Positions 25,892-31,442 are shown, numbered from the stretch's first letter. The stretch: DNA of 39,408 nucleotides from a virus (IMGVR_UViG_3300030399_000045:1-39408), one strand, 5' to 3'. Program-made: numbers and translations. Notes: generated from the letters alone by a model not told the origin.

Positions 25892-26542
25892 ATGACAGAA
25901 ACAGTAGTACAAAGTCAAGTTGAACAAAAGCCACAAGACAAAGAAATGAATTTTCGTGCCCTGGAAAATAAATACCAGCGCGCACTGGAACAGGAAAGAG
26001 CTGCAAGAATGGATGCAGAAAGACAATTGCAGGAAAGCAGACGAGCACCTCAACAAGACGAAGATGAAGATACCAGCGAACCTTACGTAGATCATAAGAA
26101 ATTAAATAAAAGGCTGAATCAGTTCGGAGAGCAATCCAAACAGCAGACTCAACAAGAAATCCAGAAAGCTGTCAATCATGCCATAGCGAATGAACGGAAA
26201 GAAACATGGCTTAAACAAAACTCTGATTTTTACGATGTTCTTCAGCATGCCGAGAAATTCGCACAGAAAGACCCTGAATTAGCTGAAACTATCCTACAAA
26301 TGCCAGAAGGCTTTGAAAGGCAGAAATTAGTCTACAAGACGATTAAATCAATGGGATTGCACCAGCCAGAACAAAAGCAAGCATCCATTCAAGAAAAAGT
26401 GGATGCAAACAGACGCAGTCCCTATTATCAACCCACTGGTGTGGGAAGTGCGCCCTATGGAAATACTGGTGACTTCAGCCCCGCAGGTCAGAAAAATGCT
26501 TATGCTAAAATGCAAGATCTTAAAAATAGGTTAAGAATATGA
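25892..26542 (+). CDS. Scaffolding protein candidate
   Basis: 216 aa, rich in Q, E, K and R and helical. It lies between portal and capsid, with RBS GAGGAAAGGA. Confidence 0.5.
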   Translation: MTETVVQSQVEQKPQDKEMNFRALENKYQRALEQERAARMDAERQLQESRRAPQQDEDEDTSEPYVDHKKLNKRLNQFGEQSKQQTQQEIQKAVNHAIANERKETWLKQNSDFYDVLQHAEKFAQKDPELAETILQMPEGFERQKLVYKTIKSMGLHQPEQKQASIQEKVDANRRSPYYQPTGVGSAPYGNTGDFSPAGQKNAYAKMQDLKNRLRI

Positions 26543-26694: not shown

Positions 26695-26712
26695 AAAGTG
26701 CATAGGAAAATT

Positions 26713-26868
26713 ATGAAAAATAATCCCATACAGGGAATCGCAATTGCTATTGGATTATCAGACTATTTAGCTGTTCCCATGAGGCAGGCTGAGGATTTGA
26801 TTTTAAGAGATTACATCTTCAGCACTGCATCCGAAGCAGGAATGAGCAAAAAAAAGAAGAAGATATGA
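26713..26868 (+). CDS. Mini-ORF carrying an uninterrupted, diverged copy of a capsid-gene segment
   Basis: SDYLAVPMRQAEDLILRDYIFSTA here compares with capsid exon 3/4 SDRLAVAMRQAED|LILRDYIVSAA. Confidence 0.5.
   Translation: MKNNPIQGIAIAIGLSDYLAVPMRQAEDLILRDYIFSTASEAGMSKKKKKI
26833..26862. repeat. 30-bp direct repeat, copy 1
   Basis: GAAGCAGGAATGAGCAAAAAAAAGAAGAAG compared with 26990-27019; the first 29 of 30 nt contain a single mismatch. Confidence 0.85.
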
Positions 26869-27022: not shown

Positions 27023-27268
27023 ATGAAATGTGCAAAATGTAACAGCGAACCAAACGGCAAATCCTTCACTGAAGGAGGGATTTGTTATGTATATTGCCAG
27101 CTATGTACCGATATTTTGGAATCTTATCGGCAAATCACTCATCAAAGTTTTCTTACTCCTGATCAGAGATTGAGTCAGATAGAAAGGAATATACGAGAAG
27201 CAAAAAAGAATCGCGCACTAGGAAAAAGTCTATGGCAGAATAGAATAGATGAATTACAAAGTAGCTAA
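27023..27268 (+). CDS. Zinc-ribbon protein
   Basis: 81 aa with CAKC...CQLC. Confidence 0.45.
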   Translation: MKCAKCNSEPNGKSFTEGGICYVYCQLCTDILESYRQITHQSFLTPDQRLSQIERNIREAKKNRALGKSLWQNRIDELQSS

Positions 27269-27488
27269 AATAATGGAAGCTATTTGCTCAGAATGTAAAA
27301 AAATCTATGAAGAAAGAAAAGAAGAAATTTTTTGTTTGATAGGTGAAGTAGATATGATTTGTTATGAATGTGCAAAAAAATCTAATAATATAGAAAATGA
27401 TATTATGTATCTGTATTGTGGAACATGTGAAAAATACTTTCATATTTTTTATGATAAAGATCACATAGAACGATGCGTTAAGGAATAA
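27249..27488 (+). CDS. Cys-rich protein
   Basis: 79 aa with CSEC..CYEC..CGTC. The start is uncertain; 27273 is an alternative. Confidence 0.45.
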   Translation: MNYKVAKIMEAICSECKKIYEERKEEIFCLIGEVDMICYECAKKSNNIENDIMYLYCGTCEKYFHIFYDKDHIERCVKE

Positions 27489-27489
27489 A

Positions 27490-27517
27490 TTGACTAAAAT
27501 TAACTTTATGCTATATT
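27490..27517 (+). promoter_or_regulatory. Promoter TTGACT-N16-TATATT upstream of the capsid gene
   Basis: The hexamers and spacing were read directly. About 150 nt of structured leader follows. Confidence 0.6.
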
Positions 27518-27675
27518 GAAATTTCGCGTGCAGCGTTAAGCATATCGCGTAAGAAGCATCGCACCCTTCACAAGCGTTAGAGGTCTCGCATCCTCAAAGA
27601 TATGATCGAGAACTGACGTAATCAGGCTCGTCTACCGATCATCATATCACACGAATCTCTCAACCCAAGGTTGAC

Positions 27676-30259
27676 ATGATTACGACAACCGGGTCACTTG
27701 GTCCGATGATATTGCAGTCGCTCGCGCCTGCTATGTTATACGTTCCAACCCCCATGATGAACTATATCACAGTCTGCGACAAGGTCAGTATGCCAGCTAA
27801 TGGCGGCACGACTTGCAGATTTATGAGGCCAAGAGCCTTACAGCCCCCAACGATTCAGTTGGGTAATTCTGGGATCGATAAACGGTGTGTCGATTTAAAA
27901 CCTTTTCTGATTGACTCGGAAGCCCCTCATACGGGTAACGAGGCGCAAGCTGAGCAATATGCTCTTGCAGCGTGAACGACTGAGCGAAAGGGACGCGAAA
28001 GCGTATGCAACAGTCTGATCTTGGACTATATATAAAATCCAAGAGGGAGATTCGAAGAAGTTTCCCCGCCTTGAGCTGCAAGGGGTCAAAAAAGTAACAG
28101 GGTGCCACCGGCACAAGTACCGCAAAGAGATATAATCGATTGGCGCAAATGGCGTTTTTTGGAACTGGGTGTATAATTAACGAACAAGTTATACTTCAAG
28201 ACCAAGAGGGTATTTTACTTGCAGCATAATGTTGGCGGGTCTATAATATAACCAAACCAAGAGGTTATATGAAAGATCCGGAAGAAAAGGAAATTATGGC
28301 TTATATTGCAGGACTCATCGATGGTGATGGTCATATAGGAATAAGAATTGGACCAAGAGGAAAATTATCACCTTTGATCCAGTTTCACAACTCTGTAAAA
28401 CAGGTTTCTGTTTATTTGAATAATTTATTCGGAGGAACAGTTGCCTATGACAAGCCAAAAAAAGAAAATGACCGTACTATATGGAAGTGGATGCTTCAAG
28501 GTTATGATGGATGCCAAAACTTTTTAAATAAAGTTAAAGAATTTTTAATTTTGAAGAAAGATTCTGCCAATCTCATGATAGAATTCTTATCCAATCCCCA
28601 TGATACTAAAGATTATTATCAAATATCAAAAGATTTAAATTTAAATAGAAAAATTGGATCTTACAATATTGATAATATTAATAGAAAAACTAGTGAGTGC
28701 CCCTATTTCTGGGCTTATTTAGCTGGTATTATGGACACAGACGGATCTTTTTCAATTGAAAGACAAGTGCGTAAAGCCGGTCAAGATAGAATGAAAAATG
28801 ATTTGGTTAAATTTCGACCAAAGATAATCTTGACTATGGTTAGCGAGAGGTCTATTCAATATATCCTTTCCAATTGTGAATATGGAGGATTATCGATCGT
28901 GAAAGCTAAAACAGCTTTAAGAGGATCGGCTTTTAGATTCTCTATTCAATCAAGATCAGATTCCATTGAATTTTTGAAAAGATGTATTCCTTTTCTTCAA
29001 ATAAAAGCAGTTCAAGCGGTAAAAATTTTGAATTTCTGTAGAAATTATAATCCCACAAATGGATTAGCAAGAATTCCAGAATCTGAAAAAGAATATCGCG
29101 AGAAATGTTATAAAGAAATAGTAATGCTGAACAACACGCCCTCTTAGCTATGACGTAATTGGTGTTAGCTTGGGTCAGTGATAGACTGGCTGTGGCGATG
29201 CGTCAAGCCGAGGATAGAGATTATGTCCTCGATAAACCTACTCTGATTGACTTGGAAGCCTAAGGGAAACTATGGCGACAGGGCGGAAGGCGTAAGCCGC
29301 CGTGAGAGACTGAGTGAGTGGGACCGAAAGGTATGCGACAGTCCGAACCAGGCAACGAAAGGCTTGGAGATAGGCAGAAATGACCTATCCACGTCAACAG
29401 ACGGGGTAACAGGTTGTTAATCCTTCGTGACTACATCGTCAGCGCAGCAACAGATATCAACTGCGGTGGTGGTATAAATGGTGACAACCCAACGAATCTT
29501 GCATTGTCAGATTGCAGTTTGGTTGCTACCACTTTGGACACAAATAACGCTTACAAGTTCATGACCGGTATTGAAGGCATGGATCGTTTTGGCACAGGCC
29601 CAATACGTAATTGTTATTTTATGCTATCGTCAACTGAATTACAGAGTGATTTTGATAACTTGGTTGGTCAAGGAGTGCTCAACAACTGGAATTATCCTAC
29701 TAATACCAGTGCGTTGCCCAGCGAATGGGGCTCCGTATTCAATTTAAGAATACTAACCAGCTCTGAAGCACCTGTAGCTAGACAAGCCAGTCCTATGAAT
29801 CAGGATATTTATTATAATACTGTTCTTGGCAAGCAAGCGATCACGCATATAAATCAGGATGGGTTAATGATGGCCCATGTAAAATCTTTGGTAATTGACT
29901 TGGAACTCCTCGCAGCATAGTCTGACGGACAACAAGGGGCAAGTGATAGAAAAAATGATAGTTTTTTTTTCCGAACGGCCTGAACGACTAAACCCAGAGA
30001 CGCCGAAAGGCGATACGATAGTCTGAACTCTATGGAAACATAGAGAGAGCGATCCGAAGAGGTTGCTCCGCCTGGCAACAGGTCACAAAAGTAACAGAAT
30101 GATTCCATGAACCTGATTTATCGTGATCCATATTATTCTGGCATGTTGGCACAGAATGCCACTCTAGCGGTGAAGTTTGCGCAAGCGCAAGCATTAACGC
30201 AGGATACAGCGATCCGAAACCTACTCTGCACGCGTTTATCTAACGCTGTAGGACCATAA
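27676..30259 (+). CDS. Major capsid protein (HK97-fold type), mosaic gene
   Basis: Proposed exons are 27676..27879, 28101..~28217, ~29162..29215, 29417..29864 and 30102..30259. The conceptual product is 326 aa. It shows the capsid-like pattern ...GGTTCRFMRPRAL...LGNSG...AQMAFFG...NEQVILQDQ...SDRLAVAMRQAEDLILRDYI...DPYYSG...LAVKF... Confidence 0.75.
27880..28100 (+). mobile_element. Group I-type intron A (ORF-less, about 221 nt)
   Basis: P1 pairs exon AUCGAU (27874-79) with GUCGAU (27889-94), with U.G at the splice site. P7 is GACUG (27978-82) with CAGUC (28011-15). P8 is ACGC-GAAA-GCGU. The 3' end is GUAACAGGGUG. The frame requires the 3' splice site after G28100, uncertain by about 4 nt. 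Confidence 0.7.
28219..28247 (+). promoter_or_regulatory. Promoter TTGCAG-N17-TATAAT inside the capsid gene, upstream of the endonuclease ORF
   Basis: The hexamers and 17-nt spacer were read directly. Confidence 0.5.
28246..28270 (+). promoter_or_regulatory. Hairpin occluding the endonuclease SD and start codon
   Basis: ATATAACC (28246-53) pairs with GGTTATAT (28263-70), with a 9-nt loop. The 5' arm overlaps the -10 element, so it would be absent from transcripts initiated at the internal promoter. Confidence 0.5.
28269..29147 (+). CDS. LAGLIDADG homing endonuclease (double-motif)
   Basis: 292 aa with two motifs, YIAGLIDGDGHIG and YLAGIMDTDGSFS. RBS is AAGAGG. Confidence 0.9.
   Translation: MKDPEEKEIMAYIAGLIDGDGHIGIRIGPRGKLSPLIQFHNSVKQVSVYLNNLFGGTVAYDKPKKENDRTIWKWMLQGYDGCQNFLNKVKEFLILKKDSANLMIEFLSNPHDTKDYYQISKDLNLNRKIGSYNIDNINRKTSECPYFWAYLAGIMDTDGSFSIERQVRKAGQDRMKNDLVKFRPKIILTMVSERSIQYILSNCEYGGLSIVKAKTALRGSAFRFSIQSRSDSIEFLKRCIPFLQIKAVQAVKILNFCRNYNPTNGLARIPESEKEYREKCYKEIVMLNNTPS
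29216..29416 (+). mobile_element. Group I-type intron B (ORF-less, 201 nt)
   Basis: P1 pairs exon GAGGAU (29210-15) with GUCCUC (29225-30). P7 is GACUG (29308-12) with CAGUC (29339-43). P8 is ACC-GAAA-GGU. The 3' end is GUAACAGGUUG. Ligation gives QAED|LILRDY, identical to the uninterrupted copy at 26713. Confidence 0.75.
29865..30101 (+). mobile_element. Group I-type intron C (ORF-less, 237 nt)
   Basis: P1 pairs exon AUGGGU (29859-64) with GCCCAU (29873-78). P7 is GACUA (29986-90) with UAGUC (30019-23), which covaries relative to A and B. P8 is CGCC-GAAA-GGCG. The 3' end is GUAACAGAAUG. Ligation is in frame (..NQDG-Y-SMNLIY..). Confidence 0.75.
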
Positions 30260-30269
30260 GGAGGTTATC

Positions 30270-31442
30270 GTGGCTGAATATTCAAGACTGGCAAGTGGAC
30301 AGGTGGTATCAACAGGCGGTCAGACTGCGGTTGTATTACCATTTATCCCTAATTTCATTGAGATTTATAACCAGACAAGAGCTATTGCAGCTTCAGGGGT
30401 TACAAATGCATCATGGATGACTGATATGGGTCAGGGAAGTGCTTTCCGTAGTTTGTATGGTACAGGAAATCAATTCATTGGTCCAACATCAGCTCTAACA
30501 ACAAGTGGATTAACTGCAGGTACTGGTTTTACAACCATTCAAGCAGGATTGTCCCTTCAATATGGACCATCTTATTATCATGCGGTTGTTTCAACAGCTG
30601 ATTTTTCGATTGCTCAATCTGGTGCTGGTGGTACTGGTCCTGCAACTACTATTACTACGGTAACAGCGCATGGACTAACTAATGGTAATTGGATTATTTT
30701 CCAGAATCTGGCACAAACCGCTACAACGGGTATGAATCAGATTGCAGGTATTCCTTTTATGGTAAGTGGAGTCACAGCGACCACATTTACCATTACCTGG
30801 GATACTTCTGGATCTAATTACACAGCGTTTAATACAGCAACATCTACAGGTAATATCGGATCGTTTAAAAAGATCCTATATCCTGTCTTGTATGCACCTG
30901 GAGTATCGTTTATTTCCTTACTGACTCTTGCAAATGTGACAACTGTAACAACTACAGCACCTCACAATTTCCAGGTAGGTCAGGAAATAGCCTTCAGAAT
31001 ACCTCAACCGTGGGGACCTACTCAGTTGAATCCGTTACCAAACGTAGTCATTCCGGGTAGTCCGATGTATGGATATGTGATTTCTGTAACAAATAGCACA
31101 ACCTTTGTGTGTAACATTAACTCTACGGGTTTCACCGCGTTTAATGTTAACCAACCGTTTGCTAACGTTCCAGGGTTACAGTTCCCTCAAGTGGTTGCTG
31201 TAGGTGATGTGAATACGGGCGGATTGCCAATTTCGGCTGGTTCTCAATTGTATCCATCTCCACAGGTGTTTAATGGATTTACTGCTAGTACTTCAACTGG
31301 TGTGAATACTATTAATGGTCCTGCTATTCAGGGGGCTTATATTAATGCAACATTCCAAGGATTTATAATCGGAAGCGGTATCTCTGGTACTGTTGGAGAT
31401 GTAATTTATTGGCGTTCGTATTTACACGATTTGAATACATAA
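30270..31442 (+). CDS. Abundant structural protein candidate (decoration/fibre-like, beta-rich)
   Basis: GTG start 6 nt after AAGGAGG, 390 aa. It contains two copies of a T-x-T-T-x-x-H-x-(F/L)-x-x-G module. It is co-transcribed with the capsid gene and followed by a strong terminator. Confidence 0.55.
   Translation: MAEYSRLASGQVVSTGGQTAVVLPFIPNFIEIYNQTRAIAASGVTNASWMTDMGQGSAFRSLYGTGNQFIGPTSALTTSGLTAGTGFTTIQAGLSLQYGPSYYHAVVSTADFSIAQSGAGGTGPATTITTVTAHGLTNGNWIIFQNLAQTATTGMNQIAGIPFMVSGVTATTFTITWDTSGSNYTAFNTATSTGNIGSFKKILYPVLYAPGVSFISLLTLANVTTVTTTAPHNFQVGQEIAFRIPQPWGPTQLNPLPNVVIPGSPMYGYVISVTNSTTFVCNINSTGFTAFNVNQPFANVPGLQFPQVVAVGDVNTGGLPISAGSQLYPSPQVFNGFTASTSTGVNTINGPAIQGAYINATFQGFIIGSGISGTVGDVIYWRSYLHDLNT

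Follow-up and report, generated by a model that had tools for sequence, protein, structure and literature searches.

A core-less homing endonuclease cassette in a phage capsid gene as a candidate satellite group I intron of its neighbour

We analysed a 39,408-nucleotide stretch of viral DNA (IMGVR_UViG_3300030399_000045:1-39408, hereafter the window), in which one capsid gene of the N4-gp56 type is interrupted at five places: by three complete group I introns (A, B and C), by a 950-nt cassette encoding a LAGLIDADG homing endonuclease, and by a dinucleotide, TG, that shifts the reading frame (Table 1). The cassette keeps a complete group I internal guide, P1 plus P10. Comparison with relatives makes it probable that the cassette is a core-less satellite intron spliced by the catalytic core of intron B, and that TG is an intron remnant, perhaps excised by intron A. 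This model of helper-dependent splicing is well supported yet unproven: that splicing occurs, and that intron B provides the acting core, we infer from the elements described below.

The capsid protein has more than 1000 homologues of about 322 residues, the best 120 of which are 78-88% identical to it and free of interruptions. The exon/intron junctions were fixed by aligning uninterrupted homologues to the window. Excising A, TG, the cassette, B and C leaves a 969-nt open reading frame (ORF) for 322 residues, collinear with the uninterrupted capsid proteins and identical to P0001 at 292 of the 322 positions. The original prediction, made from the sequence alone, had seen that an insertion splits the capsid gene, and this stands. 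Its limits (28218-29161, about 940 bp) do not, since the homologues read ...QDQEG/VLAWVS..., which places the inserted block at 28212-29161 and removes 'IL' from the capsid sequence. The comparison with cassette-less relatives that it had proposed thus puts the insertion site exactly between Gly104 and Val105.

Almost the whole insertion is, as had been predicted, a single ORF with two LAGLIDADG domains in one chain, matching the Pfam families LAGLIDADG_1 (PF00961, 3.7e-9) and LAGLIDADG_3 (PF14528, 1.8e-5); residues 6-114 and 148-261 each resemble I-CreI, I-MsoI or I-CvuI chains. The TTGCAG, TATAAT and AAGAGG motifs assigned to its expression are present where they had been placed, although TTGCAG matches the -35 consensus at only three of six positions and the TTGCAG/TATAAT pair is not listed by a promoter scan. 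The TAA that ends the upstream capsid frame is likewise there, in frame, at 28227-29. An intein was considered and rejected: besides this stop codon, the ORF lies in another frame and begins at its first LAGLIDADG motif, and the cassette encodes endonuclease domains only, with no Hint blocks.

Introns A, B and C are mutually related and form one family. All three have the group I features sought, namely P1 with a U.G pair, P10, covariation in P3-P9 and a terminal G, and their junctions restore the uninterrupted protein. An alifold analysis of 16 family members gave a P3-P9 fold with compensatory changes in 32 of the 36 predicted pairs, and P7 (GACUR/YAGUC) covaries as judged by eye. With a covariance model of 16 family members, run with filters off, the three introns score 153-214 bits and nothing else in the window exceeds 11 bits. 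Rfam is blind to this family: RF00028 misses A, B and C, both at gathering thresholds over the whole window and at E<=10 over 27300-30400. The cassette itself has no such core, as the original prediction had held. The covariance model reaches at most 6.8 bits in it and finds no complete core overlapping the ORF ends, a check that the prediction had put forward; nhmmer with A, B and C and Rfam at E<=10 found none either, and the 33-56-nt versions of the element described below are too short for any core. Small self-cleaving ribozymes (hammerhead, twister, hepatitis delta virus, pistol, hatchet) were not found at the cassette ends by Rfam at E<=10 over 27300-30400, where the only hits were four chance-level matches to unrelated families. 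A hairpin-pattern search for a full ancestor intron at QDQEG^VLAW (the caret marks an insertion point) returned more than 120 unrelated matches, the pattern being unspecific, and none in a capsid context.

The flanks of the ORF had been described as devoid of group I elements, and this proved wrong. They hold the full guide AACAC/GCCCUCUU and, after it, a stretch that pairs with exon 3. GCCCUCUU (29138-45) pairs with AAGAGGGU, the 3' end of exon 2b, to form a hairpin that we call P1', with a U.G wobble at the junction in all relatives; such a wobble marks the 5' splice sites of group I introns. The P10' guide, AACAC, pairs with GUGUU (29162-66) at the start of exon 3. The guide is in fact the reverse complement of the ligated sequence AAGAGGGU/GUGUU except for one A-to-G change, which gives the U.G wobble. 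It lies about 930 nt past the 5' splice site, as though the ORF sat in the loop of P1, and 16 nt remain after it. The cassette is preceded by U and ends in G, the sole invariant base of its last triplet, which is ATG or TTG in most copies and AAG, ACG, TAG or GTG in others. At one locus, L338, exon GUACU faces guide AGUAU, two compensatory changes in P10', while the other variants are wobble-only. In the window the guide overlaps the last codons of the ORF, so that translation and P1' formation are mutually exclusive on one molecule. L035 and L036 have a more divergent endonuclease ORF that ends 5' of the guide, which is non-coding there; hence, the guide is conserved as RNA and not as codons.

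A search with the endonuclease protein gave eight viral contigs with a cassette at the same capsid site, and a pattern of the guide plus the start of exon 3, run against viral and metagenome collections, gave 44 distinct capsid contexts; two guide variants came from another search. The elements form a natural deletion series of 33, 36, 43-50, 56, 67, 79, 93, 313-397 and 946-989 nt, many copies lacking the endonuclease altogether and the 33-nt version having no ORF. Every version retains the guide, a tail of about 13 nt and the final G. Their lengths cover all residues modulo 3 and the short versions have in-frame stops, so the element is neither translated through nor an intein. The architecture recurs in dozens of diverged contigs from many samples, among them several near-complete genomes of 38-41 kb.

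Cassette alleles always read CAAGAGGGT/GTGTTAGC at the join, whereas 69 empty genes vary freely at synonymous positions and never use GTG for Val105. This joined sequence is the candidate endonuclease target. It is present as an empty allele in L399 (IMGVR_UViG_3300028800_000033), which has the exact joins CAAGAGGGT/GTGTTAGC and GCCGAGGAT/TTAATC and neither the cassette nor B; L399 may be either an ideal uninvaded target or the result of a precise double loss. A search of viral contigs for the exact spliced junction returned this one genomic empty allele and no complementary DNA.

Wherever the sequence of a cassette locus extends far enough, a complete group I intron follows 38-54 nt downstream of the cassette (54 in the window). 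These helper introns occupy four positions (within the Met117 codon, after VAMR, after RQA and after RQAED), and in all cases the tail of the cassette, right after ...CUCUUAG, pairs with exon 3 sequence whose end lies 7-10 nt upstream of the helper 5' splice site. The spacing of this helix, Px, from the helper is constant at the four positions, which means that the paired exon segment moves with the intron. Within the RQAED group, exon CGC-CAA occurs with the tail UUGGCGCA, CGU-CAA with UUGACGUA, AGA-CAA with UUGUCUUA and AGA-CAG with CCUGUCUGA, so that, for example, the Arg codons CGC, CGU and AGA stand opposite GCG, ACG and UCU. In a 27-sequence alignment, 89% of the Px cells are paired (25-44% in slid controls) and three pairs are changed on both sides; the window and L079 are misaligned by one column, which makes this count conservative. 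The covariation score was 0.228 against 0.122 +/- 0.009 for shuffled alignments, none of 500 shuffles being as high, and the tail-exon duplexes averaged -11.1 kcal/mol for cognate and -6.8 kcal/mol for non-cognate pairs. Minimum free energy folds of the natural 33-56-nt versions show three adjacent helices, P1', Px and the P1 of B. Among 32 capsid genes from viral contigs with B at RQAED^, 17 have the cassette, nine a continuous exon, two the guide variants and four another mini-insertion. In the loci compared, the dependence is one-way: the cassette is always found with a nearby full intron, and B also occurs without the cassette. An internal hairpin of exon 3 that had shown apparent covariation in some alleles is not formed in the commonest allele type and was dropped.

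A second family of core-less mini-introns, of 35-50 nt, occurs at RLA^VAM, 24 nt upstream of B (L361, L368, L387, L390). Its guide GGCCAAG pairs with CUUGGCU with a U.G at the junction, its P10 has GCUAC opposite GUAGC (GCGAU opposite GUCGC in L361), and it has the same Px and a terminal G, with compensatory changes in the guide, P10 and Px alike. The satellite design thus appears modular and recurrent. Separately, some helper introns (L044, L066, L062, L065, L114) carry their own ORF of 0.3-0.7 kb in an early loop, and at these loci an endonuclease-less mini-cassette adjoins the ORF-bearing helper.

The original prediction had read exon 2 in the wrong frame and missed a frameshift of 2 nt: PPAQVPQRDIID is followed by TG and only then by AQMAFF...QDQEG, the unspliced sequence being AUCGAUUGGCGC. 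All cassette loci with intron A at GID^PP have 1-4 extra nucleotides directly after ATCGAT (Ile80-Asp81), namely G, TG, AG, TTAG, TAAG or TGAG, in 19 distinct alleles that all end in G, and in a scan of viral contigs these were the only capsid genes with the pattern. Loci without intron A have no extra nucleotides and mostly ATTGAT; L114 has intron A, ATTGAT and no extra nucleotides. At exactly the IID^AQ site, L086 carries an entire A-type intron, ending ...CAGTTTG/GCGCAA, and the extra nucleotides look like the last bases of such an intron. The guide of A, GUCGAU, with the preceding GGYGY can pair with AUCGAU/GCRC (6 + 4 bp) in each of the 19 alleles. Counted in the frame of each exon, third codon positions make up 10 of the 12 variable sites of exon 2a and 15 of the 16 of exon 2b, and the protein variants encoded number two and one, respectively; both pieces must then be translated and the extra bases neutralised. 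TG would be excised by A's core, in cis or as a freed intron, through chemistry of the trans-excision-splicing type. That intron A's core removes these 1-4 nucleotides is a tentative proposal, which we rate at somewhat less than an even prospect.

Seven alleles (L002, L003, L006, L026, L054, L096, L099), hereafter L002-type, have a G after ATCGAT (at the equivalent of 28141) and are in addition missing the G that opens the Glu100 codon, 39 nt downstream (the equivalent of 28182), at the very position of a full intron in L061 and L062. Each flanking piece has stayed conserved in its own frame, and what is left of the codon shows the A/G variation of a GAR codon. No guide for this second junction was found in those loci.

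In the proposed mechanism, the cassette would be a group I intron minus its catalytic core, retaining the P1' hairpin, the P10' guide and the terminal G. Px would put the P1' hairpin beside intron B, whose core would dock P1'; guanosine would attack after U28211, G29161 would enter B's G-binding site, and exon 2b would be ligated to exon 3. Removal of the cassette would precede, or compete with, B's own splicing, and B would then exit using its own P1. The template for translating the endonuclease would be either the excised RNA or a transcript from the gene's own promoter. Engineered ribozymes indicate that such chemistry is feasible: in trans-excision-splicing, a group I ribozyme removes a segment defined by P1, P10 and G, and even a single G after U is excisable (PMC2532722), while a Tetrahymena group I 'spliceozyme' removes core-less introns in Escherichia coli (PMC4094466). 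Of the readings offered by the original prediction, a degenerate intron that needs the core of a sibling is the closest to the comparative data; it is refined here by the cassette's own guide and terminal G and by the cis tether to B.

Several points weigh against helper-dependent splicing. The case for it is drawn from sequence comparison, from which neither the way in which P1' competes with the P1 of B nor the route of G29161 to the G-site of B can be read. No natural example of a group I core that acts on a second P1 turned up in the literature searches, and we know of none. The cassette alleles share their flanks, and co-conversion during homing, instead of selection, could be part of the reason why P1' is invariant. 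For TG, the model consists of linkage and compatibility, and a single haplotype block, inherited as a whole, could account for the association of ATCGAT, TG and intron A; moreover, the inserted nucleotides often give AGG or GAGG 5 nt before the AUG of AQM, which is compatible with a translation restart. Excision in the L002-type alleles could only yield a capsid protein minus Glu100 or Glu-Gln, and some other process may act there, possibly at TG too.

A restart is the essence of one alternative, already among the readings of the original prediction, in which the capsid protein is made as fragments that assemble non-covalently. Translation would stop at TAA 28227 (with TG present, already at a TAA near 28177) and resume at AUG 28149 and then at UUG 29159 or GUG 29162, much as in T-even genes split by free-standing endonuclease genes. 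Most cassettes do end in ATG or TTG, in frame with GTG TTA, a restart coupled to the endonuclease stop 14 nt upstream is conceivable, and the extra nucleotides at 28141 give AGG, GAGG or AAGG 5 nt before AQM's AUG in several alleles and an immediate stop codon in L036 and L059. However, the proposed start triplet is not kept across alleles, only its final G being invariant; no Shine-Dalgarno sequence precedes it, it lies inside the conserved loop closed by Px, and no conserved start codon with a ribosome-binding site for the downstream fragment was found in the relatives. The middle piece would shrink to a 13-residue peptide in L002-type alleles, and a protein needed in hundreds of copies would hang on a restart behind an endonuclease ORF. 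As such a scheme also assigns no function to the guide with its exon complementarity and U.G wobble, to the covarying Px or to the intron that always follows downstream, and as the 33-56-nt versions keep splicing-type elements, we consider it unlikely. Translational bypass or frameshifting as in T4 gene 60, in place of removal at the RNA level, would suit the in-frame stop after the take-off position, and the T4 bypass element is associated with a mobile endonuclease cassette. It is nevertheless highly improbable here: no codon matching GGU precedes GUG UUA, the gaps span 33 to 989 nt, and the extra nucleotides at 28141 number 1, 2 or 4 without a slippery sequence. The original prediction had further suggested that B splices from a distal site, GAGGGU (28206-11), with which its guide GUCCUC pairs through two wobbles to give an in-frame product that lacks the cassette and exon 3, including the peptide VLAWVSDRLAVAMR. 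This has almost no probability left, as the protein sequence of exon 3 is invariant across all homologues, its synonymous changes are compensated in Px, and the helper guide GUGGCC of nine VAM-group loci is unable to pair with GAGGGU.

Could the alleles simply be defective, as the original prediction also allowed, spread by homing and complemented by intact co-infecting phages? The frameshift at 28141-42 and the -1 deletion of the L002 type resemble lesions, and an intact encoded endonuclease could drive super-Mendelian spread. Yet many copies lack an endonuclease and hence a driver, the architecture is shared by dozens of diverged contigs, each exon piece varies only synonymously in its own frame, and tblastn found no second capsid gene copy in the window, its sole match being a 65-nt junction fragment (26769-26834); we regard defectiveness as very unlikely. 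Closer to helper-dependent splicing by B is the idea that the P1' hairpin is spliced in trans by whichever member of the family has been freed, be it A, B, C or an intron of a co-infecting genome, with Px serving otherwise, for example in protecting exon 3 or timing the splicing of B. One transcript holds three complete introns of the family, the TG remnant would itself need a non-contiguous core, and engineered ribozymes do act in trans (PMC2532722, PMC4094466). Against this, Px follows the downstream intron at four sites with constant spacing, loci such as L044 and L039 have the cassette and B only, without intron A, and no cassette was seen without an intron within 54 nt, so action in trans would also be unlikely. 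No single one of these alternatives explains at once the guide and its wobble, the covariation of the tether, the constant presence of a neighbouring intron and the series of natural deletions.

Table 1. Features of the capsid gene region and of the cassette, by position in the window.
Feature	Position	Strand	Score (bits)	Details
Promoter-like site upstream of capsid gene	27490..27517	+		TTGACT-16-TATATT, TG-extended
Capsid exon 1	27676..27879	+		M1..GNSGID, 3' end AUCGAU
Group I intron A	27880..28104	+	214	225 nt; guide GUCGAU 27889-27894 after P10 guide GGUGU; final G
Capsid exon 2a	28105..28140	+		PPAQVPQRDIID; 3' end AUCGAU, the hexamer that ends exon 1
Frame-shifting TG	28141..28142	+		Preceded by U, ending in G; read as 3'-terminal remnant of an IID^AQ intron
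Capsid exon 2b	28143..28211	+		AQMAFFGTGCIINEQVILQDQEG; AQMAFF...QDQEG; last 8 nt AAGAGGGU (28204-28211), 5' strand of P1'
Proposed satellite (core-less) intron with LAGLIDADG cassette	28212..29161	+		950 nt
Putative endonuclease promoter	28219..28247	+		TTGCAG (28219-24)-N17-TATAAT (28242-47); weak -35; kept in relatives
Double-motif LAGLIDADG homing endonuclease ORF	28269..29147	+		292 aa, in P1' loop; ribosome-binding site AAGAGG 28259-64
Satellite internal guide	29133..29145	+		AACAC/GCCCUCUU; overlaps last ORF codons; non-coding in L035, L036
Px 5' strand	29151..29157	+		UGACGUA, in satellite tail
Satellite terminal G (omega-G')	29161..29161	+		Sole invariant base of last triplet in relatives
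Capsid exon 3	29162..29215	+		VLAWVSDRLAVAMRQAED; 54 nt; 5' strand of B's P1, GAGGAU, 29210-15
Px 3' strand	29199..29205	+		UGCGUCA, in exon 3
Group I intron B	29216..29416	+	153	201 nt; proposed helper core; guide GUCCUC 29225-30
Capsid exon 4	29417..29864	+		
Group I intron C	29865..30101	+	188	237 nt
Capsid exon 5	30102..30259	+		Includes stop codon
Candidate cleavage substrate of the endonuclease				CAAGAGGGT/GTGTTAGCTTGG

Residues 68-117 of the capsid protein are an insertion hotspot in the relatives, with at least a dozen distinct intron sites within 50 residues: GID^PP, RD^II, IID^AQ, MA^FF, inside Ile99, IIN^EQ, inside Val102, QEG^VL, RLA^VA, inside Met117, VAMR^, RQA^ and RQAED^ (L037, L038, L040, L042, L051, L056, L061, L062, L068, L086, L093, L097, L098, L099). 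Some of these introns leave micro-exons of 21-54 nt. The pattern formed by the internal guide sequence of B plus its 5' exon has 57 further matches in viral contigs outside the capsid RQAED site. Among phage GenBank records, no relative of the capsid gene was found with DNA or protein searches, which gave three short matches to intron cores only. An AlphaFold model of the capsid protein, with 28 close homologues as input, had a predicted local distance difference test (pLDDT) score of 33, too low to bear on the spine-helix placement made in the original prediction.

Upstream of the gene, the promoter-like site and the ATG are separated by a leader of about 155 nt (27518-27675) with a higher G+C content. 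This leader contains a long imperfect hairpin, GAUAUGAUCGA...UACCGAUCAUCAUAUC, and similar sequence lies 5' of the capsid gene in L086 and L399. Two small AT-rich ORFs of 81 and 79 aa with paired CxxC motifs (27023-27488), for which there is no PHROG match, separate a scaffold-like gene (25892-26542) from the capsid gene. The AT-rich block that precedes the capsid gene holds a further small ORF (26698-26868, core 26769-26834) with LAVPMRQAEDLILRDYIFSTAS, an uninterrupted copy, about 70% identical, of the exon 3/exon 4 junction where intron B is inserted.

Group I introns are defined by carrying their own catalyst, and the arrangement proposed here would be a new form of their organisation. Its widest interpretation, a natural 'spliceozyme' in which full group I introns would be shared splicing machines for neighbouring introns cut down to their splice-site signals, from the endonuclease carrier of about 950 nt through hairpins of 33-56 nt to remnants of 1-4 nt, falls just short of an even chance in our estimation. 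If true, this would be the first case in nature of one intron's group I core serving another, and ribozyme-dependent, non-autonomous introns would exist in bacteria-infecting viruses. An 'intron' of 1 or 2 nt would be a real category, misread by gene callers as a frameshift that would otherwise be lethal, and what look like frameshifts or 30-60-nt 'junk' insertions in phage capsid genes from metagenomes would be accounted for. A homing endonuclease could persist in an essential gene after losing its own ribozyme, and there would be a parallel to the transition, proposed earlier, in which self-splicing introns gave way to introns dependent on one common machine. Annotation could then look for a guide complementary to both exon ends together with a full intron within about 60 nt, and the natural 36-nt versions are ready minimal experimental substrates.

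ORF-bearing group I introns are known from phage genes, such as T4 td with I-TevI and the introns of SPO1 and Twort. The cassette resembles them in its P1 with U.G, its P10 guide, its terminal G, its location in an essential phage gene and a loop-borne homing endonuclease gene that has expression signals of its own; unlike them, it has no P3-P9, exists in ORF-less versions of 33-56 nt and is tied by an exon helix to another intron. Free-standing endonuclease genes split T4 gene 39/60 (mobA) and the nrdA gene of Aeromonas phage Aeh1 (mobE), where two polypeptides are made. These cases share with ours an endonuclease gene with its own promoter inside an essential gene, without ribozyme or intein, and a second small anomaly nearby, but here it is the splicing-type RNA elements that are conserved and not the downstream start signals. 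Organellar bipartite (trans-spliced) group I introns rejoin two halves, and twintrons nest complete introns. Both are non-standard group I arrangements with non-contiguous splicing parts, like the present one, in which, by contrast, a single core would work for two or three separate introns with real micro-exons between them. There is also a likeness to degenerate group II and group III introns and to the spliceosome idea, where introns have only splice-site signals left and depend on catalytic RNA from elsewhere, although ribozyme class and chemistry differ and the helper here would still be a selfish intron in the immediate neighbourhood. For a core-less intron that borrows its neighbour's ribozyme, the literature searches gave no natural counterpart. 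A further likeness is to trans-excision-splicing and the spliceozyme (PMC2532722, PMC4094466), in which a core reads P1, P10 and G and removes a non-catalytic segment, down to the excision of a single G after U, as proposed here for the 1-4-nt remnants. Those ribozymes are man-made, act in trans and carry the guide themselves, whereas in the capsid gene the guide lies on the cassette, or on intron A in the case of TG, and the helper would be an intron in the same transcript.

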